Assembly (NCBI GenBank): GCA_017432885.1
Contig: JAFRIE010000013.1
Location: 17,956-81,955, forward strand
Direction: 5' to 3'
Source of the DNA: Erysipelotrichaceae bacterium
GTDB lineage: Bacteria > Bacillota_I > Bacilli_A > Erysipelotrichales > Erysipelotrichaceae
Length of the DNA stretch: 64,000 bases
Under the pieces are notes generated by a model that was given only the letters and a program-made list of their open reading frames with translations, searched no databases and was not told the origin of the DNA. Made by a program: the position numbers and the translations under genes. Shown one piece after another: positions 2,124-28,668 of the stretch. Position 1 is the first letter of the stretch. Every line of letters starts with the position of its first letter.

Positions 2124-2783
2124 TTATCGGTTTGTTTCTTTCTTGTATTCCTCATAAAGACCGTCGTTTCCTTTGAGATCAAGAAGATAGAACTGTCCAT
2201 CTTCGATCAGAATATCGGCGGCATAGCCGTTGATGACAATATGACCCGTCTTTCCTTTTCTGTGCAGGATAGCAAAGAGTTTCGTCAGATCGATCCCCAT
2301 TAGAAGTCTCATCATATGCATCAGAATGGCTCCATGGGATACAAGCAGGATGTGATCGCCATCCTTCGCTTCTTCATAGATCTGATCAAGGATTTCTTTT
2401 GCCCTTGTGACAGCGGTCTGCGGGTTTTCTCCTCCAACATCCGTCCAGTCACAGTCTCCCAGCCGTCTTCGGTTGATCTCTTCCGGATCATCGCTGATCA
2501 GAAAGCCGTCATAATCGCCCCAGGAGATCTCTTTTAGTTTCTTGGTGTAGACTAGCGGGACATTTCTGCCTTCCAGTACGATATGGGCAGTATCGACGCA
2601 GCGTTCACTGGTTGAAGTGTATGCCTTTCGCAGTGGAACATCTTTTAACGCTTCTCTGGCCTGTATGGCATCTTCGATGCCTTCTTTTTCCAGCGGCGAA
2701 TCAGACCAGCCCTGCATTCTTCCCAGGCGGTTGAACAAGGTTCTACCATGACGAACATAATGAATGTATACTTTCTTCTTCAT
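2124..2783 (-). CDS. Histidine phosphatase family protein (phosphoglycerate mutase-like)
   Basis: N-terminal VYIHYVRHGRTLFN (RHG catalytic motif) and a later SHG motif. Start trimmed to MKKKVYIHY. Confidence 0.8.
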   Translation of the reverse strand: MKKKVYIHYVRHGRTLFNRLGRMQGWSDSPLEKEGIEDAIQAREALKDVPLRKAYTSTSERCVDTAHIVLEGRNVPLVYTKKLKEISWGDYDGFLISDDPEEINRRRLGDCDWTDVGGENPQTAVTRAKEILDQIYEEAKDGDHILLVSHGAILMHMMRLLMGIDLTKLFAILHRKGKTGHIVINGYAADILIEDGQFYLLDLKGNDGLYEEYKKETNR

Positions 2784-2872
2784 GTTTTGTAGCGCTTCAT
2801 CCTCTCTTAACCGAACTGTCTTAATTATATGACAAACATGTTTCAAAATCGCCAAAGACCGTTCTATCGTGC

Positions 2873-2899
2873 ATAAAAAAGAAAGACGCAGGTCTTTCT
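2873..2899 (-). terminator. Intrinsic terminator after the esterase gene
   Basis: Minus strand AGAAAGAC-CUGC-GUCUUUCU followed by UUUUUAU. Confidence 0.6.
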
Positions 2900-2910
2900 T
2901 TGTTTCTTGT

Positions 2911-3729
2911 TTATTTTCCGATATTGCCGCTGTTGATCCCGCTTTGTGTTTTCTCCAGCGGAAGCCAGTCGATCACGTGTTTAATATAACGATTCCAGAA
3001 ATCCCATTCATGAGCTCCCGGACCGGTTTCAAATGTCACGTCGTAACTGTTCTCTTTTAATTGTTCCGCAATATGTTCTGAATGTTTCAGAAGCGGATCC
3101 GATTCTCCACAGGCAATATAAAGTTTCTGACCCTTGTTTCTGTTTTTACGAATCAGCCAGTCGATCGAAACATCGCTCTCTTTTGCTTGCTCAAGATCGC
3201 CAAATATGGCTTCAAGATAAGCATCCTGCATAAAAGACAGTGTACCATCCGGGATATCGACCATGCTGGCAGCAGATAGGGCTCCGACATATCCGAACGT
3301 ATCACTGTATTTCAGTCCATTACGTAAAGCTCCGTATCCGCCCATCGACAATCCGCAGATAAATGTATCTTCCTTCTTGTCGGATAGAGGGAACATCGCC
3401 CTAGTCACATCAACAAGTTCTTTGCCAATAAAGCGTCCGTAATAATCATGGGTCGCAGGCTGATCGACATAGAAACGATTTTCTCCTGCCGGCATGATAA
3501 CAGCCAGGTTCTTTTCTTCTGCCCATCTTTGCAGATTGGTGCCGTTGATCCAGTCGACTTGAGAACCGAAGATACCATGCAGCAGATACAGTGTCTTAAA
3601 CTGCTTTACCTTTTCGATCTTCTGATCCTTCTGATCCGGCATTGCAATCTTATCTGCCGGAAGAATCACATTGACATTGACCGTCCGGTACAGCGACTCG
3701 GACATCATATTTACCTGAATAAAAGCCAT
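2911..3729 (-). CDS. Alpha/beta-hydrolase esterase (esterase D / tributyrin esterase type)
   Basis: YLLHG oxyanion region and nucleophile elbow GLSMGGYGA. Length and layout are typical of the putative-esterase family. Confidence 0.75.
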   Translation of the reverse strand: MAFIQVNMMSESLYRTVNVNVILPADKIAMPDQKDQKIEKVKQFKTLYLLHGIFGSQVDWINGTNLQRWAEEKNLAVIMPAGENRFYVDQPATHDYYGRFIGKELVDVTRAMFPLSDKKEDTFICGLSMGGYGALRNGLKYSDTFGYVGALSAASMVDIPDGTLSFMQDAYLEAIFGDLEQAKESDVSIDWLIRKNRNKGQKLYIACGESDPLLKHSEHIAEQLKENSYDVTFETGPGAHEWDFWNRYIKHVIDWLPLEKTQSGINSGNIGK

Positions 3730-3743
3730 GTACGAATACCTTT

Positions 3744-4952
3744 CTATTTCTCAAGGATGCTGCTGAGCATGATGTTCATGCTTCCCTTCTTCAGCATCTC
3801 GGACAGTTCCCTGCTTTCTTCCCGGATATCAATCGGAATATCCTTCAGATATTTGTTTTCTCTAACAACACTCTTGATGCGCTCCAGAAAACGGTCTGAA
3901 GCGTAGGAGAATACGCCCTGAATCACAAACAGATCGGGATCGATCGCCAGAACGACGTTTCGGAATGCCATTCCGATGATGTCCGCCATGTAGGTACAGA
4001 GTTCACCGGCTTTTCCGTCTTCTCTCTTTTCTTCTTCCAGCAGATATCTGCGAATATCCCCTTTTCCGTCGTAATTCTTCAGAAGAACTTCTCTTTCTTT
4101 CTCCGGCATGGCGTTGACCATCTTCCAGATCCTCTTCTGGGAAATCAGGACTTCGAAGCATCCTTTGGAACCGCAGACGCAGGCTTCTTCATCATGAGGA
4201 TCCAGACACATGTGGCCCAATTCCCCATTTACGTCGTTGGTCGACTCCAGCGTCTTTCCGTCTTCCAGGATCGTAATGGATACACCGAAATCCGCATACA
4301 TTACGGCAGTTCTCTTCCCCTGGACCTCGCTGCTGAAGCGAAGCATGCTGGAACAGACTTTAGAAACATTTTCGATTTCGATACGTGTATCCAGCCCGAG
4401 CATCCTTGACAGATCTTCGGCGGCATGAAGATCGTTGCCCCATTGAGGGATGCTGGAAGTACGGAAGATTCCCGACTTCCTGTCGATAATACCGCCGGTA
4501 CAAAGAATAATCCCGTAGAGATCTTCCTGCGGGATCCCGTTTCTTTTCATGAGGATTCTTACGCTTTCCGCACTCTTTTCAATGAATGCTTCATAGGTCA
4601 GCGCAGCCGGAAACATGAAGGATACCGTATCGATTTCCTCACCCGTAAAAGACATGAGACAGGCCAGCGTTTCGCCTCCCGAAGGAGCGATCGAGATCCC
4701 ATAACGGCCATCATTCAGCGAGTATTCCTGCGGCTTCTTTCCGCCCAGACTCGTAGAACTGCCTTTTCCGCCCTGAATGACGATCCCTTTCTCTATGAAA
4801 CGTTCCAAAGCCCTCGTGATCGTCAACCTGCTGATCTTCGTCTGATTGGCAATATCCTGCACGGTAAAAACGCGCTGACCGGCGATCGATCGAAGGATCT
4901 CGGCATCGTTCTTCTGTTTGATGTCTTTCGGAAGTGCACCTATTCTATCCAT
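3744..4952 (-). CDS. ROK-family transcriptional regulator
   Basis: N-terminal wHTH (ISRLTITRALERFIEKGIV) plus a ROK sugar-kinase-like body with the zinc motif HMCLDPHDEEACVCGSKGCFE. Confidence 0.8.
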   Translation of the reverse strand: MDRIGALPKDIKQKNDAEILRSIAGQRVFTVQDIANQTKISRLTITRALERFIEKGIVIQGGKGSSTSLGGKKPQEYSLNDGRYGISIAPSGGETLACLMSFTGEEIDTVSFMFPAALTYEAFIEKSAESVRILMKRNGIPQEDLYGIILCTGGIIDRKSGIFRTSSIPQWGNDLHAAEDLSRMLGLDTRIEIENVSKVCSSMLRFSSEVQGKRTAVMYADFGVSITILEDGKTLESTNDVNGELGHMCLDPHDEEACVCGSKGCFEVLISQKRIWKMVNAMPEKEREVLLKNYDGKGDIRRYLLEEEKREDGKAGELCTYMADIIGMAFRNVVLAIDPDLFVIQGVFSYASDRFLERIKSVVRENKYLKDIPIDIREESRELSEMLKKGSMNIMLSSILEK

Positions 4953-4981: not shown

Positions 4982-5815
4982 TTAATCTACTCTTGTATAA
5001 TTGTAAGCTACATTGCCGAATTTACCGTCTGTACGATCCGGCCCGCCCTTGCTGGCCCATCTCTTTGGAATGCCTGCAACCATGGGATTCGGATGATCAA
5101 ATTCCTCTTTGTCGTCTGTTCCGGCAAGGATCCTCTGACAGCAGTCGATCACATTGTTGACGCAGTCGTTCGAAACGACATCGTAATCGTGGCAGATGGC
5201 CATGCCGCTCATTTTCGGCAGCCATTCTTTCCTGATCCTTTCAAGGGATTCAAGATAGTGGGAGATGGATGTGGAGTCCTCCAGGAAGACCCAGGTTGAA
5301 TTGTTGCAGCAGTCGCCGACAAACAGCAGTTTCGACCTGTCGTCGTAGAATGCCATGGAACCTTTTGTGTGGCCTGAGAAGTCGATCGCCGTCAGCGTTC
5401 TTCCACCCAGATCGTTGACTTCGCCATCCTGAATGTCGATGATCCTGACATCCTTCACGTCACAGACATCATCTTCCGTCCATTCCGTCTTTCCGGCGAA
5501 TGTACGCAGCATATCCATGTACTGCAGACGGTCCGCCTTGGTATTGCTTTCAAGCATATACAGATCCTTGTGGGACATATGGACTTCATCGAAGCGGTAC
5601 ATGCCGCCTGCATGATCCAGATGGCCATGTGTCAGATAAACTTCAACCGGTTTGTCCGTCAGTGTTTCAACAAAGGCCTTGATGTCGTGCGTACCCAGTC
5701 CCGTATCAAGCAGAACGGCTTTCTTTTCGCCGATCACCAGGTACATGCCTACAGCACCCTGACCCTCGATGTGAAGGATATCGTTTCCAAGATCTTTCGT
5801 TACGAATTCAGCCAT
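4982..5815 (-). CDS. MBL-fold metallo-hydrolase
   Basis: THGHLDHAGG metal-binding motif and a downstream His/Asp ligand pattern. Confidence 0.75.
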   Translation of the reverse strand: MAEFVTKDLGNDILHIEGQGAVGMYLVIGEKKAVLLDTGLGTHDIKAFVETLTDKPVEVYLTHGHLDHAGGMYRFDEVHMSHKDLYMLESNTKADRLQYMDMLRTFAGKTEWTEDDVCDVKDVRIIDIQDGEVNDLGGRTLTAIDFSGHTKGSMAFYDDRSKLLFVGDCCNNSTWVFLEDSTSISHYLESLERIRKEWLPKMSGMAICHDYDVVSNDCVNNVIDCCQRILAGTDDKEEFDHPNPMVAGIPKRWASKGGPDRTDGKFGNVAYNYTRVD

Positions 5816-6792
5816 TATTTAGCACTCTTTCTAACAACCTGTCTTCTGTTGAGGTTGTACACGTCGATACCGATCGCCATCAGCATGATGATTCCTTTAG
5901 CAATAAACTGATAGTATGTATCCAGACCCGCCAGCTGCATGCCGTTGGTCAGGATCGAAATGATCAGTACACCTGCAAAGACGCTGGTCATCTTTCCTTC
6001 GCCGCCACGTACGGAGATACCGCCCAGCAGAATACCGGTGATTGCCGTGAATTCTGTGCCCGGACCGGTATTGGAATGTGCCGAACCAAGTCTTGCCGTA
6101 AGGATGATTGCAGAAATAGCAATCAGTGCACCTGCAAGGGCAGAGATGATATAACGCATCTTCTTGACATTGATACCTGCCAGATTGGCGGCTTCACTGT
6201 TTCCGCCCAGAGCATAGACATACTGTCCGAAATAGGTTTTGGACATCAGGATCGAACATACGATCAGCAGGAAGAACATGATGAACACCGGAAGAGGAAT
6301 CTTACCGATGTTTGCCTGACCGATGGCCTTGAAACCGTCAGAGAAGCCCCTGATCGAAACGGACTTCGAAATGACGTAAGACAGACCCTGGAAGACCGAC
6401 ATCGTCGCGACCGTGATCATGAAACGGTTGATCTTCAGAAGTTCCGAAAGGAAGTTGTTCAGCATGCTGAGGATCATGCCAATGACAATCGTGATGAGAA
6501 TCGTAGGAACAGCCGGAATACCCATCTGAACATTCAGAATGCCGGCGATGACGGAGCACAGAGACATGATGTAGCCGACGGAAAGGTCGATCTCGCCTGC
6601 CATCATCAGGAAAGCGACACCCAGCGAACAGATGATCGCATAAGAGTTCTGTGAAAGTATGTTGACGATGTTCGCAAAGGACAGGAAGTTCTTTGTGAAA
6701 GAGAATAGAATCAGTACAACAAGCAGAATGATCCATGCCATGTACTTTTTAAATACTTCATCGAAATTGATTTTTTTCATTTTTATATCCAT
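5815..6792 (-). CDS. Sugar ABC transporter permease (CUT2, RbsC-like)
   Basis: Polytopic membrane protein with an RbsC-type layout, lying between the ATPase and the rest of the operon. Confidence 0.8.
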   Translation of the reverse strand: MDIKMKKINFDEVFKKYMAWIILLVVLILFSFTKNFLSFANIVNILSQNSYAIICSLGVAFLMMAGEIDLSVGYIMSLCSVIAGILNVQMGIPAVPTILITIVIGMILSMLNNFLSELLKINRFMITVATMSVFQGLSYVISKSVSIRGFSDGFKAIGQANIGKIPLPVFIMFFLLIVCSILMSKTYFGQYVYALGGNSEAANLAGINVKKMRYIISALAGALIAISAIILTARLGSAHSNTGPGTEFTAITGILLGGISVRGGEGKMTSVFAGVLIISILTNGMQLAGLDTYYQFIAKGIIMLMAIGIDVYNLNRRQVVRKSAK

Positions 6793-6798
6793 CCCTTC

Positions 6799-8292
6799 TT
6801 AAGCCGCTTCGCGGATGCCCGATGCGAGCGCCATGATATGATTCTGTTCAAAATTCTCTCTGTCGACGAATCCGGTAATCTCACCTTCGTAGAAAACCAT
6901 GATCCGGTCGGACATACCCATTAGTTCTTCCATTTCCGATGAGATCATCAGTACGGATTTCCCCTGTGCAACCAGTTCGTTGATCAGATTGTAGATCTCC
7001 TGCTTGGCACCGACATCGATTCCTCTTGTCGGTTCATCCATGATCAGGATATCCGCTTCCGTCGCCAGTGTCTTGGCAACGACGACCTTCTGCTGGTTTC
7101 CGCCGGAAAGGTTTCTGACCAGCTGCTGAGCCGATGGTGTTGCGATCGACAGTTCCTTGATGTATCGGTCGACGATTTCGGTTATCTTCTTCCGATCCAC
7201 AAACAGGCCGTTGGAAGCTTTCTTAATCATCATGATCGGAATATTCCAGTCGATGGCATATTCCAGGAAAGCACCTTCTCTTTTTCTGTCTTCGGGGATC
7301 AGACCGATGCCGTTGGCGATTGCTTCGGAAGGAATGCGGATGTTTTTCTTTTCGCCATGGGCATAGATCTCGCCCTTGTCTTTCTTCAGATAGCCGTAGA
7401 CCATCTTAGCCATCTCCGTCCTGCCTGCGCCAACCAGTCCGGCAACACCCAGGACTTCGCCCTTATGCAGCTGGAAGTTGATATCGACATCTCCCTGTCC
7501 GTACAGGCCTTTCACTTCCAGAACGACTTCGTCTTCCGGTTTCGTATCTCTTTTCGGATACTCATCGCCGATATCTCTGCCAACCATCAGTTTGATCAGC
7601 TCGCGACGGCTGGTTTCTTTCGTACTGAGGGTCTTGATATACTTCCCGTCTCTCATTACCGAGATTCGATCGGAAATCTGGAAGACTTCTTCCAGTCTGT
7701 GAGAAATATACAGGATGGTGACGCCCTTTTCCTTGAGTGTTCCGACCATCTTCAGCAGATTTTCCGTTTCGGCAGACGACAGCGATGCGGTTGGTTCATC
7801 CATAATCAGAACCCTGCAGTTCTTGATCATCGACTTGGCGATCTCCACCATCTGCTGCTGTCCGGTTGAAAGCGAGGAGACCATTGTATTCGGGTCGATC
7901 TCCATGCCCAGTTCTTCCAGCACTTTTGAAGTCTCGGCATTCATCTGCTTCTTGTCCTTGTAGAACCTGTGCCCAAGCTTGTTGCCCAGACAGACATTCT
8001 CCGAAACGGAAAGAGAAGGCACCAGATTGAATTCCTGGTAAATGACGCCGATACCGTTTTCCGAAGAAAGCGTCGGTGTCAGATGATCAAAGCTCTTTCC
8101 GTTAACCGTGATTGTTCCCTCGTTCGGACGGATGGCTCCGCCGACCGTTTTAATCAGCGTCGATTTGCCGGCACCGTTTTCACCCATGATCGCATGGACT
8201 TCTCCTTCTTCAAAAGAGAGAGAAACATCGTCCAGTGCCGTTACACCCGGATAAAGCTTCGTTATATTGTCTAATTGTAGGATCGTTCCCAT
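6799..8292 (-). CDS. Sugar ABC transporter ATP-binding protein (duplicated ATPase, RbsA-like)
   Basis: Two ABC cassettes: GENGAGKST / LSTGQQQ / LIMDEPTA, and GLVGAGRTE / LSGGNQQK / LIMDEPTRG. Confidence 0.9.
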   Translation of the reverse strand: MGTILQLDNITKLYPGVTALDDVSLSFEEGEVHAIMGENGAGKSTLIKTVGGAIRPNEGTITVNGKSFDHLTPTLSSENGIGVIYQEFNLVPSLSVSENVCLGNKLGHRFYKDKKQMNAETSKVLEELGMEIDPNTMVSSLSTGQQQMVEIAKSMIKNCRVLIMDEPTASLSSAETENLLKMVGTLKEKGVTILYISHRLEEVFQISDRISVMRDGKYIKTLSTKETSRRELIKLMVGRDIGDEYPKRDTKPEDEVVLEVKGLYGQGDVDINFQLHKGEVLGVAGLVGAGRTEMAKMVYGYLKKDKGEIYAHGEKKNIRIPSEAIANGIGLIPEDRKREGAFLEYAIDWNIPIMMIKKASNGLFVDRKKITEIVDRYIKELSIATPSAQQLVRNLSGGNQQKVVVAKTLATEADILIMDEPTRGIDVGAKQEIYNLINELVAQGKSVLMISSEMEELMGMSDRIMVFYEGEITGFVDRENFEQNHIMALASGIREAA

Positions 8293-17295: not shown

Positions 17296-17802
17296 CTATA
17301 CCTGTTTCATGATCTCCTTTCCCGTTTCATATTTATCCTGTTCAGGAATCGTAAAGATGATCCTGATCTCGTGATCCGGATGCTTCCTGCACCAGTCCTT
17401 ACAGGCTCTCAGAGCCGTTTTCCAGGCTTTTTTCAAAGGATAACCGTAGATACCTGCCGAAATCAAAGGAAAGGCGATCGAAGAAATAGAATGCTCTAAA
17501 GCCAGATCCAGACTGCTGATGTAACAGCTGTAAAGAAGTGTTTCCTCGTCGTGGTTTCCATCTTCATAGATGGGTCCTACTGCATGAATGATGTAGGGAC
17601 AAAGCGCAAAGCCCGGCGTGATCACCGCATTTCCCGTCTCGCATCCGCCGATGTCGTCACAGGCTTTCTGCAGTCTTGCAGCACCTGCGGCTCTGAAGAT
17701 GGCGCCGCATACTCCACCTCCCTGTAAAAGACGGGAATTGGCAGCATTGACAACCGCTTGCGCTTCCGTGGCGGTAATACCTGTTTTTCTGATCTCTATC
17801 AT
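17296..17802 (-). CDS. Macro domain protein (O-acetyl-ADP-ribose deacetylase / YmdB-like)
   Basis: VNAANSRLLQGGGVCGAIFRAAG and IAFPLISAGIYGYP motifs. Confidence 0.85.
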   Translation of the reverse strand: MIEIRKTGITATEAQAVVNAANSRLLQGGGVCGAIFRAAGAARLQKACDDIGGCETGNAVITPGFALCPYIIHAVGPIYEDGNHDEETLLYSCYISSLDLALEHSISSIAFPLISAGIYGYPLKKAWKTALRACKDWCRKHPDHEIRIIFTIPEQDKYETGKEIMKQV

Positions 17803-19102: not shown

Positions 19103-19156
19103 GAAAACCCCGGCAACGGGGTTTTCAACATAGAAAAGGATCCTTTCGGATCCTTT
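19103..19156 (-). terminator. Two tandem terminator hairpins after rtcB
   Basis: AAAGGAUCC-GAAA-GGAUCCUUU followed by UCU (overlaps the stop codon), then GAAAACCCCG-UUGC-CGGGGUUUUC. Confidence 0.55.
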
Positions 19157-20360
19157 ATTCATCAGCCTTGAAATTGTAGATCGGTTTCACCGTTTGAATG
19201 ATCTGTGCAGTCGGAGTGATATTCTCGACAATATCTTTCATATCCTTATAGGCCATCGGGCTTTCATCCAGCGTATTACGGTTTACCGTCGTAGAGTAGA
19301 TGCCCTCCATCTGCCTTTCAAACTCTTCTACCGACAAGGAACGGAAGGCTTCGTTCCTTGACATGATCCTTCCGGCACCGTGCGGTGCGGAACAGTTCCA
19401 TTCCGGATTTCCTTTTCCGATACAGATCAGAGATCCGTCTCTCATGTTGATTGGGATCAGGAGTTTCTCCCCTTTCTGTGCGGATACGGAGCCTTTTCTC
19501 AAGATCATATTTTCGGTATCGATGTAGTTGTGTACGGTCGTAAACTGGTCGGTAACAGTCAATCCCATTCCCTCAACGATGATCTGCATCATCGTTTTAC
19601 GGTTGATATCGGCAAATTCCTGCATGATCTTCATGTCGTGGATGTAGTCCTTGAACAGGCTGCCGCTTACATAGGCCATCTCCTTTGGAATGTCCGTCTT
19701 TGCCTCTTTCTTGATATCCTCCAGCATCGCTGAAATTTCTCCGCTTCTGCCCTGTGACTTCAGTTCATCGATCCTTTTCTGAATCTCTTCCTTTGTGACT
19801 CCGTTGATCTGCTGCCAGGCCAGACGCTGATAGATCTCGGCCACTTCCTTTCCCAGATGTCTGGAACCGGAATGGATGACGATGTAGAGAGTTCCTTTCT
19901 CATCTTTATCCACCTCGATGAAATGGTTGCCTCCGCCCAGAGAACCGATGGCTTTCAGTTCCTTTTCAAGGTGTTCCAATCTGCTGATGCATCTTAGATT
20001 AAAGACACGCACTTGGTCGGCATTGACGTGCTTCTTTTTGCGCACATTTATGCCCGAAGGGATCTGTTCATGGATCAGACGATCCAGTTTCTCAAGATCG
20101 ATCTCCTTCTCTTTGATCATGACCGTTTCCATCCCGCAGCCGATATCAACACCGACCATATTCGGTGTAACCGCGCCATGCAAAGTCATGGTCGTTCCGA
20201 TGGTACATCCCGCTCCCGCATGGACGTCCGGCATGATACGGATCCTGGAATCCTTGTATATCTCCATGTCACACAAGGCCTGCAGCTGCTGTAGCGCTGT
20301 TTCTTCTACGTTTGAAGTGTAAACGATCGCTTCGTTGTATTTTCCCTGTATCTTGTACAT
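19155..20360 (-). CDS. rtcB: RtcB family RNA 3'-phosphate/5'-OH ligase
   Basis: MPDVHAGAGCTIG, GGGNHFIE, IHSGSRHLG and SAPHGAGR (the guanylylated His context). 401 aa. Confidence 0.9.
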   Translation of the reverse strand: MYKIQGKYNEAIVYTSNVEETALQQLQALCDMEIYKDSRIRIMPDVHAGAGCTIGTTMTLHGAVTPNMVGVDIGCGMETVMIKEKEIDLEKLDRLIHEQIPSGINVRKKKHVNADQVRVFNLRCISRLEHLEKELKAIGSLGGGNHFIEVDKDEKGTLYIVIHSGSRHLGKEVAEIYQRLAWQQINGVTKEEIQKRIDELKSQGRSGEISAMLEDIKKEAKTDIPKEMAYVSGSLFKDYIHDMKIMQEFADINRKTMMQIIVEGMGLTVTDQFTTVHNYIDTENMILRKGSVSAQKGEKLLIPINMRDGSLICIGKGNPEWNCSAPHGAGRIMSRNEAFRSLSVEEFERQMEGIYSTTVNRNTLDESPMAYKDMKDIVENITPTAQIIQTVKPIYNFKADE

Positions 20361-20405
20361 ATTACTCCTTTCATAAATCCGTCCGATCTCAGGACGGGCC
20401 TAAGA

Positions 20406-21854
20406 TTAGACGGTGATTCTTTCGTATCTTTCCGTATTCAGTACGGAAAGCATGTATTCATATGGCGTCATGTTGATTCCTTTGACCAGGGATTCGAATA
20501 CGGCTGTCGACTGACCGGAAGCCAGCTGTACCCCTTTACGGTCAAAGGAAGCGTGATAAGTACTGTGACGCGAATTGACGTTCCAGAAGACCACGCTTGG
20601 CATCTCGTAACCGTTATCCTCGAACTGTTTCTTCATCAGGTCGTAGAACAGCCAGTTGCCGCTGACGCATCTGTCGATTTCCATGTCGGTAATGACGACG
20701 ATGGAAGAAGGCATTTCCTCTTTCGGGGTCCGGTATTTGACTGCCGTATACAGCAGGAGCCGGAATGCGGCTTCAAGGTCCGTGTTCATCGCCCATTGGG
20801 CATTCGCAATGTATCGGATCTTCTCGAAAAGACTGTCGCCCTTGATGGTGACCAGTTCCGGCCTTGCGGAGAAGGTCATGAAGGTATTGGCAAAAGGACC
20901 TTTGTTTCTTTCGGCAAAATACATGGCCAGACCGACCGAAGTCGCCATCGGTCTGCCGGACATTGAACCGGAAACATCGGCCATGACCAGAAAGCTGTTT
21001 TCGCCTTCGATGTAATTCGGTAAGGCCTTCCACTGTTCCTCAAGGACCTTGTCCACACCTTCCGACTGATAAAGATATTTTTCAACGATATCGTAAGGAT
21101 AAAGGACGGAAGAATTTATTTTCTCTTCGCCTCTTTCAACCTTGCTTACGAACTCGTCGAAACGTTCTTCATCATGACGCCGGAAAGCTTTGCGGTAGTT
21201 GTTCATGGCTTTGGAAGGAACTTCCGGATAGATAATATCTTCCCAGTTCTTTGCAGACATATCGACTTCAACTACATTCAGATACTTACGCAATACCGCA
21301 AGGGTCTTCCGGTATTCCCGCTCGGACATGCCGAAGCTTTTCGCCAGATATTTGCCTTTTCTGACCGTCTCCCTGTTAGAAGTATTGACGGAAGGAAGCC
21401 ATTTCGCCAGTAAAGATACAGGCTCCATTTTCTTCATACCGGCCAGGTCTTCCTTAAGCTGTTTCTTCAGCAGCGGAACGATGACATCCGCTGCATCGTC
21501 CAGCAGATAGACCAGATCGTCCCATCTTCCGTAATCGGCAACGTATTCCAGATTCTTTCTGAAGATATCGGGATAGTTTTCAGCCAGATACTTCAGCATC
21601 AGTCTGCCGGTACGTCTTTCCCCCAGACCGCCTCTGACATCTCTGGTATAGAAAGCCAGTTTTGTCGCAACAAGCTTATCTTTCACCATGGCTTTTGAGA
21701 ACAGGGCGATGATTTCCTCGTCTTCTCTCTCGCGCATTGCGCCGGAGACGGCAAAAAGATCAACCAGGGCGTCTGACGTGCTGTTTAAAGCCAGAGCGTC
21801 GTTTTCGGTTAGTGTGTAGTTCTGTTCCTTTCTGATGTTATCGAATAAAGTCAT
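20406..21854 (-). CDS. DUF2828-type protein: helical N-terminal half plus C-terminal vWA/MIDAS domain (Ro60-like architecture)
   Basis: Start trimmed to MTLFDNIRKEQ, with AAGGAGG 7 nt upstream. MIDAS motif VMADVSGSMSG and a later VVITDME. N-half has YTRDVRGGLGERR and YGRWDDLVYLL motifs. The family name is from memory and unverified. Confidence 0.65.
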   Translation of the reverse strand: MTLFDNIRKEQNYTLTENDALALNSTSDALVDLFAVSGAMREREDEEIIALFSKAMVKDKLVATKLAFYTRDVRGGLGERRTGRLMLKYLAENYPDIFRKNLEYVADYGRWDDLVYLLDDAADVIVPLLKKQLKEDLAGMKKMEPVSLLAKWLPSVNTSNRETVRKGKYLAKSFGMSEREYRKTLAVLRKYLNVVEVDMSAKNWEDIIYPEVPSKAMNNYRKAFRRHDEERFDEFVSKVERGEEKINSSVLYPYDIVEKYLYQSEGVDKVLEEQWKALPNYIEGENSFLVMADVSGSMSGRPMATSVGLAMYFAERNKGPFANTFMTFSARPELVTIKGDSLFEKIRYIANAQWAMNTDLEAAFRLLLYTAVKYRTPKEEMPSSIVVITDMEIDRCVSGNWLFYDLMKKQFEDNGYEMPSVVFWNVNSRHSTYHASFDRKGVQLASGQSTAVFESLVKGINMTPYEYMLSVLNTERYERITV

Positions 21855-22019
21855 GGTTTTTACCTCCTTATGATTCTTAGACACGGCACTACGGGTGTTG
21901 CGTTTTTCCGGTTTTCTAGATGGTGCAAACAGTTTGTTGCAAGTGCCGTTATACAAGATGCCATATTCGTTCATTTATGAGATGAATGTCACTAAGATTG
22001 CTGCAGGCATCTTTGTTTC

Positions 22020-22122
22020 AAGACGTTGTTATGATCGCGGGATTCGAACCCGCCTGTCCCTGACTGCAAGTCAGGTGCTTACCGCTTAGTCAGATCTCTC
22101 AAAAGATTGCTGTTAACGTCTT
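22020..22122 (-). ncRNA. tRNA-like module (Y-RNA/YrlA-like candidate) in the leader of the vWA-rtcB operon
   Basis: Perfect T arm GCGGG-UUCGAAU-CCCGC (22037-22053). Anticodon-like arm CCUGA-CUUGCAG-UCAGG (22059-22075). D loop AAGCGGUAAG. Only a 4-bp acceptor (GAUC/GAUC) and no CCA. Clamped by an 8-bp helix AAGACGUU/AACGUCUU. Transcript ends are unknown. Confidence 0.5.
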
Positions 22123-22341
22123 TCATTCCAGACACCATAGTTCCTTTACAAGAGGTTTTGCTGTCGGTGTCTGATGTCCCTTGGGACAATTTCATCATAA
22201 CAGGAGTCATATTTATAATAAATTGTCAGTTTCTCAAATTACTTGACCACCTGTTTTATCATTTTTTATGGTTTTTTTACATAGATTTCTTTATTTCTTG
22301 ACCACCTTTTGTGTACCATAAAGGTATATGAAGGCAGAAAC

Positions 22342-23361
22342 ATGGAAGAAAAGATCAAAATATACATACCGGAAAGCGTCAACAGTATCCTATTAAAGGA
22401 CATGGAACTCTTTGAATTCTTCAAAAAGGACGGTTCCTTGAATAAAAACGAGTTCTACAACACTCTGATCGTCAACTACTATGAACAGTACGAAGAAAAC
22501 CAGAGTGCGATCTTTTCTCATATCATCGGCAGCATTTCCGAAAAGTCATCCCTTACGGAAACGGAGGCCAAGGACATCGCCGCCGACATCCTGCAGTACG
22601 TGGATGTCCGAACCTATCAGCTGGACAGACAGAAATACGACGTGGCGATTGCCATGAAACCGACCCGGAAATCCTCCGACGATATCGAATACATCCAGAA
22701 CTGTCTGCTAGGCAATTCCACGCTATCCAATTATTTCCGTAACATGTTCGCATCCTATTCCCTGCTGCCTCAGGACAAACGGGAGACGATCATTTTTAAG
22801 CAGAATTTCGACCTGATCAGGGAAGCTATTGAAGAAGACAGGAAGGTTTATTTCACTACTGTCAAAAACACTGCACCGCACATTATGTCTCCGTATACGA
22901 TCGCCAGTTCCAGAGAGGAGCTTTTCAACTATCTGATCGGTAACTACAAAGACCATCCCTACAGTTTCCGCATTTCCCGGATCCGGCAGGTCAAGATCCT
23001 GAATGAATCCAGGGATATGCCGGAAGGACTCGTCAGAATTTTCGAATGGATGGAAAAGTTCGGTCCGCAGTTCTCCTACGACATCAAGAAACCGAGAACG
23101 CCGATCATCGTCAGACTGACGGAAAACGGCAGACGGCAGTTCCGTTCCATGTATCTGCATCGGCCTTCTCCTTTCAAGATCGAGGAGGATCTCTACTATT
23201 TTGACTGTTCCCGTTCCCAGGCTTTCCAGTACTTCTCCAGACTCGGAAGCAACGCGACCGTACTGAAACCTGAAGACCTGGCCGATGATCTGTACAGGTT
23301 CTATTCCATGGCGGAAAGAAAATACCGGAAACTTGTCAGAGAAGAACCCGGAAATGAATGA
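22342..23361 (+). CDS. WYL-like domain protein with a WCX-like C-terminus and an unrecognised N-terminal region
   Basis: Start trimmed to MEEKIKIYIPE. WYL-type core: KVYFTTVKNTAPHIMSPYTIASSREELFNYLIGNYKDHPYSFRISRIRQVKIL. C-terminal ...FSRLGSNATVLKPEDLADDL resembles the WYL C-terminal extension. No canonical wHTH seen. Confidence 0.5.
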   Translation: MEEKIKIYIPESVNSILLKDMELFEFFKKDGSLNKNEFYNTLIVNYYEQYEENQSAIFSHIIGSISEKSSLTETEAKDIAADILQYVDVRTYQLDRQKYDVAIAMKPTRKSSDDIEYIQNCLLGNSTLSNYFRNMFASYSLLPQDKRETIIFKQNFDLIREAIEEDRKVYFTTVKNTAPHIMSPYTIASSREELFNYLIGNYKDHPYSFRISRIRQVKILNESRDMPEGLVRIFEWMEKFGPQFSYDIKKPRTPIIVRLTENGRRQFRSMYLHRPSPFKIEEDLYYFDCSRSQAFQYFSRLGSNATVLKPEDLADDLYRFYSMAERKYRKLVREEPGNE

Positions 23362-23364
23362 CGG

Positions 23365-23435
23365 ATTCTTTGCTGAGACTTGAACACAGATCTGCAGATT
23401 CAAAGTCTGCTGTCCTTCCTTTAGACGACAAAGAA
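23365..23435 (-). tRNA. tRNA-Gln (anticodon UUG), atypical
   Basis: Acceptor UUCUUUG/CAAAGAA (U1:A72). D arm GUC-UAAAGGAAG-GAC. Anticodon arm GCAGA-CUUUGAA-UCUGC. T arm CUGUG-UUCAAGU-CUCAG with one U*U mismatch. No encoded CCA. The 3' end is 3 nt from the stop of the convergent gene. Confidence 0.6.
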
Positions 23436-23438
23436 ACG

Positions 23439-23522
23439 TGGTGCACAGGGAAGGAATTTGCACCTTCACAGAATTAACGGGAGTTTTACAGACTCTTGAG
23501 CTCACTCGTGCTCAGCCTGTCC
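23439..23522 (-). tRNA. tRNA-Tyr (anticodon GUA), long-variable-arm type with a non-canonical elbow
   Basis: Acceptor GGACAGG/CCUGUGC (G2*G71 mismatch), A73, CCA encoded. D arm GAGC-ACGAGUGA-GCUC (no GG). Anticodon loop CUGUAAA. 12-nt variable region. T stem GAAGG/CCUUC with an 8-nt loop UGCAAAUU. Confidence 0.6.
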
Positions 23523-23523
23523 A

Positions 23524-23600
23524 TGGTCAGTGTGACAGGATTCGAACCTGTGGTCTCATGGTCCCAGGCCATGCGCTTTGCCAAGCTAAGCTACACACTG
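23524..23600 (-). tRNA. tRNA-Pro (anticodon UGG) with C at position 33
   Basis: Acceptor CAGUGUG/CACACUG. D arm GCUU-AGCUUGGCA-AAGC. Anticodon arm CAUGG-CCUGGGA-CCAUG. T arm ACAGG-UUCGAAU-CCUGU. A73 and CCA encoded. Confidence 0.8.
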
Positions 23601-23605
23601 ATGAT

Positions 23606-23680
23606 TGGCGGTCTATACGGGAATTGAACCCGTATCCGGTGATAGACAGTCACCTATCTTAGCCGTTAGACGAATAGACC
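23606..23680 (-). tRNA. tRNA-Asp (anticodon GUC)
   Basis: Acceptor GGUCUAU/AUAGACC. D arm GUCU-AACGGCUA-AGAU. Anticodon arm GGUGA-CUGUCUA-UCACC. T arm ACGGG-UUCAAUU-CCCGU. G73 and CCA encoded. Confidence 0.85.
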
Positions 23681-23682
23681 AC

Positions 23683-23757
23683 TGGTTCCAGATCAGGGAG
23701 TTGAACCCTGTTCCTGCGGCTTATGAGACCGCGACAGATACCGACCTTCCATCTGGT
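23683..23757 (-). tRNA. tRNA with CAU anticodon (Met, initiator or lysidine-Ile; undecided)
   Basis: Acceptor ACCAGAU/AUCUGGA with an A1*A72 mismatch. Weak D stem. Anticodon arm GCGGU-CUCAUAA-GCCGC. T arm CAGGG-UUCAACU-CCCUG. A73 and CCA encoded. Confidence 0.7.
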
Positions 23758-23760
23758 ATA

Positions 23761-23835
23761 TGGTAATGCCACCGGGACTTGAACCCGGATTGCAGGATTG
23801 AAAATCCTGTGACCTGACCTTTCGTCGATGGCATC
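23761..23835 (-). tRNA. tRNA-Glu (anticodon UUC)
   Basis: Acceptor GAUGCCA/UGGCAUU (G1:U72). D arm GAC-GAAAGGUCAG-GUC. Anticodon arm CAGGA-UUUUCAA-UCCUG. T arm CCGGG-UUCAAGU-CCCGG. A73 and CCA encoded. Confidence 0.85.
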
Positions 23836-23836
23836 A

Positions 23837-23911
23837 TGGTAGAAGCTGATGGACTTGAACCAGTCAACTGACGATTATAAGTCGCCTGTTTTTCCTTTAA
23901 ACTAAGCTTCT
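23837..23911 (-). tRNA. tRNA-Ile (anticodon UAU), atypical T stem
   Basis: Acceptor AGAAGCU/AGCUUCU. D arm GUUU-AAAGGAA-AAAC. Anticodon arm GGCGA-CUUAUAA-UCGUC. T loop UUCAAGU with stem GA(C)UGG/CCAUC (bulged C). A73 and CCA encoded. Confidence 0.7.
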
Positions 23912-23913
23912 GC

Positions 23914-23988
23914 TGGGGTATTGTAACGGTACTGCCCCGTTTCTTTCGCGGTCACAACGCGACGTACTGCTTCTATACGAACAACACC
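23914..23988 (-). tRNA. tRNA-His (anticodon GUG) with a non-canonical T loop
   Basis: Encoded G-1 paired to C73. Acceptor GUGUUGU/ACAAUAC. CCA encoded. Anticodon arm UCGCG-UUGUGAC-CGCGA. T stem AACGG/CCGUU is perfect but the loop is GGCAGUA. D loop AGAAGCA lacks GG. Confidence 0.7.
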
Positions 23989-23991
23989 ATA

Positions 23992-24065
23992 TGGCTTCGG
24001 GTGACCGACTCGAACGGTCATCCTATGAGTCAGAGTCATAGATCCTGCCATTAGAAGAACCCGAA
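23992..24065 (-). tRNA. tRNA-Gln (anticodon CUG)
   Basis: Acceptor UUCGGGU/ACCCGAA (U1:A72). Anticodon arm UAUGA-CUCUGAC-UCAUA. T arm GACCG-UUCGAGU-CGGUC. G73 and CCA encoded. D stem about 3 bp. Confidence 0.8.
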
Positions 24066-24070
24066 TCCCG

Positions 24071-24098
24071 GAGAGCCCTGGGTTCTCATTTTTCTTTT
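24071..24098 (+). terminator. Plus-strand intrinsic-terminator-like signal just past the tRNA array
   Basis: GAGAGCC-CUG-GGUUCUC followed by AUUUUUCUUUU. The minus-strand version is not followed by U's. It overlaps the 3' end of the XRE CDS. Confidence 0.5.
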
Positions 24099-24292
24099 AC
24101 AATGATCTCATCGATCGTCATCTGAAACAGTTCTGACAGCACCGCCAGATTATCCACAGTTGGCAGTGCTTCACCCCTCTGCCACTTGAAGATGGCCTGA
24201 GGCGTGTTGAAGCCCATCGCTTCCTGAATCGCTTTAATCGAAAGACCTTTTTCTTTTCTTAAGCGGGAGATATTGTTTCCCGTTTTGATCAT
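24086..24292 (-). CDS. Small XRE-family HTH protein
   Basis: MIKTGNNISRLRKEKGLSIKAIQEAMGFNTPQAIFKWQRGEALPTVDNLAVLSELF is a classic Cro/CI-type HTH. The start is ambiguous (24292 or 24325). Confidence 0.75.
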   Translation of the reverse strand: MIKTGNNISRLRKEKGLSIKAIQEAMGFNTPQAIFKWQRGEALPTVDNLAVLSELFQMTIDEIIVKEK

Positions 24293-24333
24293 GTTGATCC
24301 TGACTGCTACAAACACAGCAACCATCTCCTTTC

Positions 24334-26902: not shown

Positions 26903-27547
26903 TTACTTTTTCCTTTTCTCGTAGTCTTCCGCGATCTGTACACTCCAGTCCTCTGCGATACAGCCGCAGGTTCTGTGCATTTTAACGGCATCCGATAGTA
27001 CTTCATAGTTCTTCTTTGTTCCCTTGGAATCGCTGTGAAACCTTACCGCCCTGTCTTCTTCGATCCCGTAGCGTTTCGCCGTTTCTACCGCATCGATGTT
27101 GGCTGCCAGGAAGAGGAATTCCCAGCCTTTCTTTTTCTGCCGAGAGACCATTTTCTTGACATCGTCGGATGAATACCGGGTCGAAGCATTCTCCATGCCG
27201 TCGGTTATGATCACAAAGATCGTTTTCTCCGGGACATCCTCTTTCCGGATGTATTTGTGGACATTCCGGATGTGATGGATGGCGTCTCCCATGGCGTCGA
27301 TCAAAGCCGTCGTTCCGGAAGGGAAGTAGTCCTCTCTGTCCATCTTTCTGATCTCTTTCAAAGAGACCCGATCATAGACTACTTTACTGGTCTGGTTGAA
27401 CAGGACAGTCGAAACCAGACATTCTCCGTCCACTTTTTTCTGTTTTTCCACGAAAGAATTGAATCCGCCGATCGTGTCTTCCTCCAGACCGCTCATCGAT
27501 CCGCTTCGATCTAAAATAAATACCAGTTCTGTTAAATTCTTATTCAT
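26903..27547 (-). CDS. Small cytoplasmic vWA domain protein
   Basis: MIDAS LVFILDRSGSMSG plus FVIITDGMEN. 214 aa with no signal peptide. Confidence 0.8.
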   Translation of the reverse strand: MNKNLTELVFILDRSGSMSGLEEDTIGGFNSFVEKQKKVDGECLVSTVLFNQTSKVVYDRVSLKEIRKMDREDYFPSGTTALIDAMGDAIHHIRNVHKYIRKEDVPEKTIFVIITDGMENASTRYSSDDVKKMVSRQKKKGWEFLFLAANIDAVETAKRYGIEEDRAVRFHSDSKGTKKNYEVLSDAVKMHRTCGCIAEDWSVQIAEDYEKRKK

Positions 27548-27633: not shown

Positions 27634-28668
27634 TTAACAGCCCAGTGTTTTCTGATCCTGTTCGAACAGGATCTCGTTGACCTGATAAATATTGTAGATC
27701 CTGTGTTCAATGCAGTAACGGATAATCAGATCGAATTTGATCGCTTTCGAAAGAACATAACCTGCTCTCTCCAGAAGGATATTCGTATCTTCCATGTTCA
27801 GTCTCATTCCGATAGCCAGAGCTACGGCTGTTTCTTTCTTTGGCCGGTAGTTCTTCGTATTCTTGATGTGGTTGAAGTGTTTCCGGTCGATGTTGGCCTT
27901 TTTGTATACCTCGGGATCCGGCAGTCCCCTCTCGTCGATCATACGGATCAGACATTCCGAAAAGGATTCATCCGGTTCAAATTTTTCTTCTTCATAAACG
28001 TATTCTACCGATGTTGTATATTTTGGAACAACGGCATCTTCTTCGTAAAGTCTTCCCGCCTGCTCCGGCATCATTCCATCGACAAAAAACGTATCCTGAT
28101 ATGTTTTCCTTGCTTTCTTTGCCGTGTGATGGGCCGATGAACGAAGCTGTCCGTCCAGATAGTCTTGAATATCGAGATATAACCTGTTGGCAGTATCAAA
28201 GGATTCCTTGTCGTAAACCAGCAAAGAAACCTTCATTTCATTGTCATTCAGGAAATCCGTAATCGTGTCGGTAGCGATTCTTAACGCCTGACCTTTCGGG
28301 AAAGAAAAAGATCCTGAAGCAATTAAGGGAAATACGATCGACTCCAGTTTCTGTTCTTTGGCGATATTCAGACATCTCCGGTAACAGGAGGTCAGCAGCT
28401 CCACTTCCTGATGTTTTCCGTCTGTGTAGTTTGGACCGCAAGTATGGATGATGTAACGGTATCCTTTCAGGTCGAAGGAATCGCTTAAAACGGCCTCTCC
28501 TGCCGAAATATGACCAATGCCGAAACAGAATTCATCAAGCTTTTCTCCCGACAGTTCATGGATGATCCTGTCGACCCCTCCGGAGCCGGATAAAAAGACA
28601 TCCGTCGGACAGACGATCGCATCGGCACTGATGTTTCGGATATCGTTTCTGCTGATTTCCAGTGGCAT
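27634..28668 (-). CDS. Macro domain protein with a C-terminal HTH-like domain
   Basis: N-terminal macro fold (ADAIVCPTDVFLSGSGGVDRIIH and VFPLIASGSFSFP). The C-terminal about 110 aa (FSECLIRMIDERGLPDPEVYKKANIDRKHFNHIK...LLERAGYVLS) resembles an XRE-like HTH module. Confidence 0.7.
   Translation of the reverse strand: MPLEISRNDIRNISADAIVCPTDVFLSGSGGVDRIIHELSGEKLDEFCFGIGHISAGEAVLSDSFDLKGYRYIIHTCGPNYTDGKHQEVELLTSCYRRCLNIAKEQKLESIVFPLIASGSFSFPKGQALRIATDTITDFLNDNEMKVSLLVYDKESFDTANRLYLDIQDYLDGQLRSSAHHTAKKARKTYQDTFFVDGMMPEQAGRLYEEDAVVPKYTTSVEYVYEEEKFEPDESFSECLIRMIDERGLPDPEVYKKANIDRKHFNHIKNTKNYRPKKETAVALAIGMRLNMEDTNILLERAGYVLSKAIKFDLIIRYCIEHRIYNIYQVNEILFEQDQKTLGC

Follow-up and report, generated by a model that had tools for sequence, protein, structure and literature searches.

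What might be the function of a locus in which a Ro60-like protein, RtcB, a leader with a tRNA-like element, a WYL-type gene, and an array of tRNA genes lie side by side? The question is raised by a 64,000-nucleotide stretch of DNA (the window) from an Erysipelotrichaceae metagenome-assembled genome (MAG); its 482-amino-acid Ro60-like protein matches one of that origin with 100% identity. An earlier note on this DNA, made from the sequence, proposed a circuit for the sensing, repair, and replacement of damaged tRNA. Such a circuit is plausible, and the analysis described below identifies the locus as a variation on the Ro60/Y RNA/RtcB theme, phage-type in origin. Central to this view is a family of small RNA modules, four of which stand in the leader of the operon, and which is tightly linked to genes of the Ro-like protein's family, DUF2828, in bacteria and phages.

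Predicted Ro60 Fold of a DUF2828 Protein

The operon encodes a protein with a MIDAS (metal ion–dependent adhesion site) in a von Willebrand factor A (vWA) domain and, 45 nucleotides later, RtcB; Pfam matches placed both genes, on the minus strand, exactly where the earlier note had called them. An AlphaFold2 (AF2) model of the 482-residue protein, built on 29 homologues, reached a pLDDT of 89.5 and a pTM of 0.89, and the predicted architecture is a helical ring (DUF2828) followed by a vWA/MIDAS domain (DUF7788). The MIDAS residues D293, S295, S297, T358, and D390 (DxSxS, T, D) are invariant in the 29 homologues. In a Foldseek search of the Protein Data Bank (PDB), the top seven matches were all Ro60/Rsr structures aligned over the full length (549–574 aligned columns; E = 3e-6 to 2e-4), including Xenopus 1YVR and 2I91, human 9NF8, 9NEP, and 9NFA, and Deinococcus 2NVO, with isolated vWA domains far behind. 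TM scores for the best of these matches lie at 0.5–0.6, and sequence identity to Ro60/Rsr is about 12–13%. The comparison of predicted structures supports the Ro60 fold that had been proposed; the suggested link to Ro60/Rsr extends to fold and not to orthology, and the protein is Ro-like but belongs to a separate family, DUF2828, rather than being a TROVE/Rsr orthologue. By analogy with Ro60, the DUF2828 ring may bind Y-RNA-like molecules and thread RNA ends.

DUF2828 is a large family (9,023 clusters at 50% identity, E up to 1e-3), and its members occur in 708 phage records, typically adjoining tRNA arrays. The phages comprise Felix-O1-type coliphages (251 records, all with a DUF2828 gene), Listeria P100-type, staphylococcal, Bacillus Tsamsa-type, Campylobacter, and KVP40-type phages, and mycobacteriophages; some of their DUF2828 proteins are already annotated as “Ro-like RNA binding protein.” A literature search on “DUF2828” returned irrelevant papers only, and a 2016 study by Burroughs and Aravind (NAR) may already have placed the family with ROT/TROVE proteins. 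A homologue with 44% identity (6001–7458 of comparison locus L053) lies on a contig binned to a Promethearchaeota (Asgard) MAG, which could mean a viral sequence, a transferred gene, or an error of binning. Here and below, L-numbers label comparison loci that carry homologues, and neighborhood counts refer to 80 genome loci.

Four Tandem RNA Modules in the Leader

The noncoding stretch before the Ro-like gene measures about 340 nucleotides. Comparison of the regions upstream of DUF2828 genes revealed a recurring unit, in which an 8-bp helix with the consensus 5'-AAGRYRCN/NGYRYCUU-3', followed by G, encloses on its 5' side one or two unpaired bases and the motif ACAGCAA, then a variable insert, and finally an A-rich stretch before the 3' strand. 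Four such modules, M0 to M3, follow one another in the leader (Table 1). The degenerate core of M3 in the window reads ACAGCAA or ACAGCGA in most of six orthologues. Upstream of M0, an extended −10-like element that orthologues conserve is probably the operon promoter; a two-hexamer promoter scan did not pick it up.

The earlier note had described a tRNA-like module in this leader. The element is there, as a match to the Rfam tRNA model shows, but it is not a lone feature, since it forms the insert of one of four tandem modules, M1. It comprises a D-arm, a 6–7-bp anticodon-like arm, and a canonical T-arm in the linear order D/anticodon/T; its acceptor stem contains two noncanonical pairs, at model positions 1 and 3, CCA is lacking, and both ends lie inside the 8-bp outer helix, with which the fold reaches a z score of −2.9. 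The six orthologous loci share an invariant T-arm and show covariation in the anticodon-like stem; their loop sequences vary, and some have lost the D-arm. A genuine tRNA-Ala was considered and rejected on the mismatched acceptor stem, the missing CCA, the enclosed ends, and the unconserved anticodon-like loop. These sequence features identify the M1 insert as a tRNA mimic and not a functional tRNA.

No family of Rfam 15 covers the modules: a search of the window, run at gathering scores as well as at E up to 10, and one of nine module-rich loci, at gathering scores, gave tRNA matches only. Of the two RNA relationships suggested earlier for the leader, that to tRNA was borne out by covariance-model search and that to YrlA was not; the YrlA model (RF02553, gathering score 69 bits) gave no leader match at E up to 10, and its sole window match, of 18.2 bits, falls on the array tRNAs.

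Linkage of the Modules to DUF2828 Genes in Bacteria and Phages

The distribution of the modules is both strand- and position-specific. Strict modules in 81 loci number 106 on the DUF2828 strand versus 17 on the opposite strand, and 67 of the former lie within 500 nucleotides upstream of the start codon. The motif CAGCAA occurs 165 times in 53 kb of sense sequence (700 nucleotides upstream) compared to 576 times in 1686 kb elsewhere, a roughly nine-fold higher density, and it is accompanied by a closing helix of at least 7 bp in 72 of the 165 upstream cases (44%) versus 51 of the 576 others (9%). In 71 modules from 36 bacterial genomes, all eight helix pairs covary, with 173 double-substitution cells.

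A covariance model, R1, was built from these 71 bacterial modules with the window and all phages excluded. In the window, R1 scores M2 at 33.5 bits (E = 9e-6) and M0 at 28.9 bits (E = 6.6e-5), and in phages it reaches 31–32 bits for modules of CP30A (Campylobacter), Tsamsa (Bacillus), and a staphylococcal phage. Modules occur in Listeria, Staphylococcus, Bacillus, Campylobacter, Felix-O1-type, and mycobacterial phages, and their placement differs: three lie immediately upstream of the DUF2828 gene in Listeria phage LP-048 and two upstream in CP30A, S-CoN_Ph2 and Krypton555 carry three each immediately downstream of the gene, and in Tsamsa and wV8 modules are interleaved with tRNAs.

The linkage was also recovered in the reciprocal direction. 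The pattern AAAGRYRCNNACAGCAA...GYRYCTTG alone, scanned over IMG/VR, matched at least 120 loci. Among the 120 matches listed, a DUF2828 homologue is present in the stored stretch of 58, compared to 1.4% of phage records overall; motif and gene share a strand in all 72 pairs, the motif being upstream in 59, and tRNAs are found in 85 of the loci, with up to 35 in one. Taken with the bacterial data, these results describe a conserved module family, linked to DUF2828 genes in bacteria and hundreds of phages and apparently undescribed.

A tRNA-like insert is a recurrent feature of the family. A T-loop is present in 31 of 122 modules, some of which have the linear order seen in the window, while others (Krypton555, Tsamsa, wV8, L020/L022, and L076) show the permuted order of T-arm, acceptor-like hairpin, and D-arm by which YrlA is defined. 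One Krypton555 module matches Rfam YrlA at 38.3 bits over model positions 24–84 only, with the closing stem unmatched. The idea of a tRNA mimic is thus common to YrlA and the module family, and the presumed protein-binding element differs. In two loci (L037, ~1745–1860, and L032, ~5640–5760), a sequence of tRNA shape, in which acceptor stem, D-arm, and T-arm are good, carries a ~45-nucleotide insertion that includes AACAGCAA; the insertion sits where the anticodon or variable region belongs, and the whole resembles a tRNA–module hybrid. In CP30A (L087, 2889–3302), four Rfam tRNA matches fall within a 1.3-kb gap that carries no annotation, tRNAs included, and that lies just upstream of the module pair and of the DUF2828 gene.

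A WYL1-Family Protein and Paired Direct Repeats

The gene divergent from the operon, correctly recognized in the earlier note as WYL-type, encodes a candidate RNA-sensing regulator. Because homologues begin with MEEK, its start was set at an ATG (22342) in place of a TTG at 22309. The family profile matches WYL1 (PDB 6OAW) at E = 1.3e-20 over residues 13–331, nearly the full length, and 6OAW is also the best Foldseek match of the AF2 model (pLDDT 89.8; E = 4e-17, TM score 0.68); the next matches, DriD, PafBC, CapW, and BrxR, cover the WYL and C-terminal part only. The protein thus shares with WYL1, an accessory protein of type VI-D CRISPR-Cas13d systems, a three-domain architecture over its full length, consisting of a ribbon-helix-helix (RHH) N-terminal domain, a WYL domain, and a C-terminal dimerization domain. 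WYL1 itself has an RHH N-terminal domain and binds single-stranded RNA (ssRNA) tightly (PMC6547453).

In contrast to WYL1, the window gene is found without Cas13d or a CRISPR array: no Cas13d-like protein or CRISPR context was detected in the window or in L088–L093. It lies instead divergent to the Ro-like and RtcB genes, with paired DNA repeats in between. The WYL1-like family has 186 matches, mostly in Erysipelotrichaceae and Clostridia. Its members are divergent to DUF2828–RtcB in the window and L001–L006, to DUF2828 alone in L049, L079, and L089, and to RtcB–DUF6847 without DUF2828 in L091–L093; in L088, the gene adjoins neither DUF2828 nor RtcB. In L091–L093, the DUF6847 protein (4140–4592 / 2703–3155) follows RtcB.

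Two direct repeats, RGKGGTCA (GGGGTTG in L049 and L079), lie about 55 nucleotides apart and always between the WYL1-like gene and its divergent neighbor. Their G-GGTC cores are invariant in seven orthologous leaders, and similar pairs are present at L088, L089, L091, L049, and L079; an exact search for the window repeat AGGTGGTCAAG found none in any locus, conservation being limited to the form RGKGGTCA. The repeats are a candidate operator of the WYL1-like protein. Because they look like −35 boxes, too, when the opposite strand is read, the operator assignment stays an inference. The divergent placement and the paired repeats suggest transcriptional control rather than nuclease stimulation, and damage could be the signal that the WYL protein senses.

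RtcB, the tRNA Array, and the Layout of the Locus

RtcB scores 219 bits against a Pfam cut-off of 27, and its translation contains the conserved metal- and GMP-binding histidine motifs GGGNHFIE, HSGSRHLG, and APHGAGR; it falls below all NCBIfam equivalog cut-offs and is therefore assigned to no named subfamily. RtcB enzymes join 3'-phosphate or 2',3'-cyclic phosphate ends to 5'-OH ends. An rtcB gene adjoins DUF2828 in 25 of the 80 genome loci and lies nearby in a Listeria phage.

The nine tRNA genes reported earlier are Gln-CUG, His-GUG, Ile-UAU, Glu-UUC, Met/Ile2-CAU, Asp-GUC, Pro-UGG, Tyr-GUA-like, and Gln-UUG, in this order. ARAGORN predicts seven of them, and Rfam five of those seven. The remaining two were read by folding: a clean cloverleaf for tRNA-His(GUG) (23915–23989), convincing by its 8-bp acceptor stem typical of tRNA-His and its encoded CCA, with an odd T-loop, and a weak Tyr(GUA)-like cloverleaf (23437–23522). 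The count of nine is defensible, with the latter gene as its weak part. CCA is encoded in eight of the nine genes, all but Gln-UUG, and the genes are spaced by 1–6 nucleotides. The array tRNAs score low for bacterial tRNAs and are substantially different from their counterparts in the orthologous islands of L002 and L003, where the array content is also not the same, which marks these genes as atypical and fast-evolving.

Three of the four GUN anticodon types (His, Tyr, and Asp) are represented in the array, in addition to Glu-UUC and Gln-UUG. These are classes hit by colicin E5-type and gamma-toxin-type anticodon nucleases, a correspondence that is no more than suggestive, and the array may serve to replace cleaved tRNAs. 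Several array members have unusual features. The tRNA-Pro(UGG) (23524–23600, minus strand) carries C at anticodon-loop position 33 in place of the near-universal U, as do its counterparts in L003 (3900–3976) and L032 (5490–5562), and tRNA-Asp (23606–23680, minus strand) has U at position 37; these anticodon-loop changes could matter for anticodon-nuclease resistance. The CAU tRNA (23683–23757, minus strand) has a 4-nucleotide D-loop, an A/A first acceptor pair, and almost no Rfam tRNA score, with the D-arm kept in L003, and may be an Ile2 (lysidine) or initiator-like species.

On the minus strand, the locus runs from 24325 to 19135 in the order XRE, tRNA array, leader, DUF2828/DUF7788 gene, rtcB, and terminator-like hairpin (Table 1). 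The small XRE gene, as had been noted, is confirmed by its Pfam match and is probably co-transcribed with the array; XRE homologues stand beside DUF2828 or tRNA arrays in 9 of 80 loci and in phage LP-048. The WYL gene occupies the plus strand, and its 3' end meets the array: the last tRNA gene ends 1 nucleotide from the WYL stop codon (23361–23363), in convergent orientation and with no terminator predicted in between, so that transcription continuing past the array would yield RNA antisense to the regulator mRNA and could enter the module/Ro-like operon.

Table 1. Positions of the features that make up the locus, numbered along the window.
Feature	Position	Strand	Description and basis
XRE-family helix-turn-helix (HTH) gene	24086–24325	−	Pfam HTH_3, 2.2e-9; directly upstream of the tRNA array, same strand
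tRNA array	23363–24065	−	Nine tightly packed genes; ARAGORN, Rfam, folding, sequence reading
WYL1-family gene	22342–23361	+	Pfam WYL, 6.7e-6
Direct-repeat pair CTTGACCACC	22242–22251 and 22297–22306	+	Spacing 55 nt; between WYL start and operon promoter
Extended −10-like element TGnTATGAT	22194–22202	−	Conserved alignment columns in orthologues
Small 5' hairpin after −10-like element	22176–22187	−	
Module M0	22174–22128 (also delimited as 22125–22177)	−	Helix CAGACACC/GGUGUCUG, core ACAGCAA, insert 21 nt; module finder, R1 28.9 bits, conserved in orthologues
Module M1	22122–22020	−	Helix AAGACGUU/AACGUCUU, core ACAGCAA, insert 79 nt (tRNA mimic); module finder, tRNA score, fold
tRNA-like element (M1 insert)	22029–22099	−	Rfam tRNA 32.8 bits (gathering score 29); ARAGORN “Ala-tgc”
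Module M2	22013–21955 (also delimited as 22017–21951)	−	Helix AAGAUGCC/GGCAUCUU, core GCAGCAA, insert 35 nt; module finder, R1 33.5 bits, orthologue alignment
Module M3	21949–21883	−	Helix ACGGCACU/AGUGCCGU, degenerate core GCAACAA, insert 43 nt; module finder, orthologue alignment
Ro60-like gene (482 aa)	20406–21854	−	Pfam DUF2828 1.8e-41 and DUF7788 4.3e-41, weak VWA_2 match
rtcB	19155–20360	−	Pfam RtcB, E = 1.4e-64; start 45 nt past the Ro-like gene
Intrinsic-terminator-like hairpin at operon end	19135–19156	−	Terminator scan

The whole arrangement is conserved in L001–L006, with the qualification that L005 and L006 have the WYL–DUF2828–RtcB core but no array within 6 kb. Across the 80 loci, a divergent WYL gene is found in 8 and larger tRNA arrays in about 10%; arrays adjoin DUF2828 in several bacteria and in phages. 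In L032, L039, L042, L047, L070, and the phages, the array runs straight into the modules on the same strand. From these gene orders, the ancestral layout looks like XRE / tRNAs / modules / DUF2828 (/ RtcB), and the WYL1-like gene would have been inserted between array and modules in the Erysipelotrichaceae clade.

A Model for the Locus

Based on these data, the locus can be described with moderate confidence as a chromosomal, phage-type RNA-maintenance cassette that works as follows. Transcription from the extended −10 promoter would yield a single transcript with the four modules, the Ro-like gene, and rtcB. The modules, each with an 8-bp purine/pyrimidine-patterned helix, an asymmetric loop (5' side ACAGCAA, 3' side A-rich), and a distal part that varies, would be the cognate RNAs of the DUF2828 ring and a functional counterpart of Y RNAs. 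Most likely, they would be processed from the leader and bound via the helix-plus-ACAGCAA element, and the distal part, such as the tRNA mimic in M1, would engage tRNA-recognizing factors or act as a decoy. The resulting ribonucleoprotein (RNP) and RtcB would act on broken or misfolded tRNAs or rRNA, with RtcB resealing 2',3'-cyclic-phosphate/5'-OH breaks and the Ro-like ring handling RNA ends beyond repair. The WYL1-family protein would bind the paired GGTC-containing repeats via its RHH domain, and binding of ssRNA fragments to the WYL domain would alter transcription of the operon, analogous to the CARF domain of RtcR. Finally, the upstream XRE–tRNA array would supply extra, divergent tRNAs. 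The cassette may have a role against anticodon nucleases.

Several observations weigh against this model. The 482-residue protein matches neither Pfam TROVE nor any NCBIfam model, and sequence searches of the PDB (phmmer and the family profile) found no Ro60. Strict modules lie within 1.5 kb upstream in just 42 of 81 loci, and the helix pairing in the 71-module alignment (A2) is 100% by selection, only the covariation and location statistics being independent. R1 misses M1, with its long insert, and M3, with its degenerate core, and with filters off it recovers M0 and loses M2, making it an incomplete detector. RtcB, the tRNA array, and the WYL gene each occur in a minority of DUF2828 loci, which indicates that the four components are separable. 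Lastly, the position of the modules in the 5' untranslated region (UTR) of the window fits a role in cis equally well.

According to this last alternative, the modules would be cis-regulatory sites at which the Ro-like or WYL1-like protein binds its own leader and controls translation or stability of the DUF2828–rtcB message. All four modules lie in the 5' UTR in the orthologues as well as in the window, M3 ends about 20 nucleotides before the ribosome-binding site, and a promoter and terminator scan of the window found no such element separating the modules from the Ro-like gene. The phage modules, in contrast, are also located downstream of the gene (S-CoN_Ph2 and Krypton555) or among tRNAs up to several kilobases away, always on the same strand, and the range in copy number from one to more than five, with inserts that include complete tRNA mimics, is more like that of tRNA-like processed products than of an mRNA operator. 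A cis-regulatory role is considered rather unlikely.

A second alternative concerns the origin of the cassette and would see in it phage or mobile-element cargo, such as a counter-defense kit, or a relic in the chromosome, rather than a host stress response. The abundance of DUF2828 in phages next to tRNA arrays, the XRE gene that accompanies the array, and the atypical array tRNAs, with encoded CCA and fast divergence between orthologous islands, are in line with cargo, as is the report that a Ro60-like protein, gp130 of phage Bas63, counters a defense system (PMC11482910). However, a Pfam scan of the window proteins detected no phage structural, integrase, or replication genes, and the island is flanked by chromosomal housekeeping genes (SepF, a Castor/Pollux-type channel, AzlCD, Macro-domain proteins, hut genes, and glycogen synthase), on which grounds a prophage was rejected. 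In relatives at 70–80% protein identity, moreover, the island occupies the same position, with genes of the SepF side at one end and of the Macro/NlpC side at the other: in L001, RtcB is followed by Macro and NlpC genes, like in the window, and in L003, SepF lies upstream of the XRE gene. This stable position argues for a retained host function despite the phage-type parts and, together with the acquisition of a dedicated divergent regulator, points to a domesticated, vertically kept function. Cargo or relic status is judged quite improbable, and as to mechanism the two readings are not exclusive.

That an ordinary cluster of tRNA genes, a degenerate pseudogene of tRNA-Ala, and genes with no mutual relation came together by chance is hardly credible: each component is also found without the others and the tRNA-like element scores barely above the Rfam threshold, but the strand- and position-specific module enrichment, the reciprocal motif-to-gene recovery, the arrangement kept in L001–L006, and the parts shared with phages of four host phyla contradict it, and the recurrence of RtcB, divergent WYL genes, and tRNA arrays beside DUF2828 bears out the conserved neighborhood that the earlier note had expected. 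None of the three observations by which the note's proposal would stand refuted was made.

The island is flanked by two genes encoding Macro domains, at 17296–17802 and 27634–28668 (both on the minus strand). In the orthologous locus L001, a Macro gene (4281–4784) directly follows RtcB, whereas AzlCD intervenes in the window. ADP-ribose-phosphate by-products that arise in RNA ligation pathways are processed by Macro domains, so the Macro gene may be part of the repair set. One more small vWA protein, unrelated and of VWA_CoxE type with the MIDAS motif DRSGSMSG, is encoded at 26903–27547 (minus strand), 2.5 kb from the island.

Comparison with Known Systems

The closest parallel is offered by the Salmonella rsr-yrlBA-rtcBA operon, in which, likewise, a single transcription unit holds RtcB, a Ro-type ring-plus-vWA protein, and small structured RNAs, a tRNA mimic among them. 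Its divergent regulator, RtcR, also has a ligand-sensing domain, a CARF domain that binds tRNA fragments (PMC7790460). The differences are substantial: the window protein is DUF2828/DUF7788 and not TROVE; four RNAs of the helix-plus-ACAGCAA type stand ahead of the gene; the tRNA mimic is linear, whereas that of YrlA is permuted; RtcA is missing from the window operon, and a tRNA array is attached; and the regulator is an RHH–WYL protein, whereas RtcR is a sigma-54 CARF activator.

With canonical Ro60/Y RNA RNPs, such as those of vertebrate Ro60, the Deinococcus radiodurans Rsr–Y RNA–PNPase complex, and Thermus phage phiLo phiRo60 with Yrl1/Yrl2, the window protein has the predicted fold in common over its full length. 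RNAs encoded beside the Ro gene are a further likeness, shared by the window candidates, phiRo60 (PMC12135203), and bacterial YrlA (PMC4201824). A bulged helix is described in papers on canonical Y RNAs, and the phiLo study counts as canonical a 5'–3' stem around a bulge that bears a CGAA motif (PMC12135203); the modules carry instead ACAGCAA by an AAGRYRC/GYRYCUU helix and are not covered by Rfam YrlA. Because the original YrlA survey searched solely beside TROVE-annotated genes (PMC4201824), the DUF2828 family would have been missed.

The tRNA arrays of Felix O1-, Tsamsa-, and P100/A511-type phages resemble that of the window in their packed, atypical, one-strand tRNAs, with DUF2828 at the array edge and modules interleaved. 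The window array differs in being chromosomal, in comprising nine genes with an XRE gene in front, and in the regulator gene between the array and the Ro-like operon. The earlier note knew of no described system with its combination of parts, but the combination is not unique to this locus: a tRNA array, DUF2828, XRE, and RtcB occur together in Listeria P100-type phages, and DUF2828 lies by arrays in Tsamsa and Felix-O1-type phages. Surveys of jumbo phages tie phage tRNAs to RNA ligases and ROT/TROVE proteins (PMC7824862). In a PhageMaP study, Ro60-like gp130 of Bas63, encoded directly upstream of a tRNA stretch, was found to counter the Ppl defense, and its authors guessed that some Bas63 “tRNAs” are Y RNAs (PMC11482910); Bas63 itself is absent among the Felix-O1-type phages listed here, and thus orthology of gp130 with DUF2828 is not established. 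A homologue in Listeria phage CKA15 is present in virions and encoded downstream of highly transcribed unannotated regions near tRNAs, for which Y RNAs were also guessed (PMC12282133). An RNA motif is defined in neither paper (PMC11482910 and PMC12282133). The three modules of LP-048 may correspond to the transcribed regions of CKA15.

Implications

DUF2828 Ro-like genes are core genes in Felix-O1-type, P100-type, and staphylococcal biocontrol phages, and their RNA partner has so far been undefined. A concrete, searchable module of helix and loop makes the Y RNA guess of the two phage papers directly testable and may help to explain how Bas63 gp130 defeats the Ppl defense. Tentatively, a broader view can be advanced in which the modules are a very widespread new class of Y-like RNAs that load onto DUF2828 rings and that, with tRNA arrays and often RtcB, form a “tRNA guard” against RNA-cleaving immunity or toxins in large phages and in this bacterium, while WYL1-family proteins would be RNA-fragment-sensing transcription factors. 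If this view is true, WYL1 would gain a role outside CRISPR, and the missing Y RNAs of phages would be supplied. The operons for RtcB and Ro-like proteins that are linked with a WYL1-type ssRNA binder suggest that Firmicutes have a counterpart of the RtcR circuit for damaged-tRNA sensing. The most valuable outcome is a searchable RNA module family tied to DUF2828 proteins, together with the link between WYL1-family proteins and RNA-repair operons.

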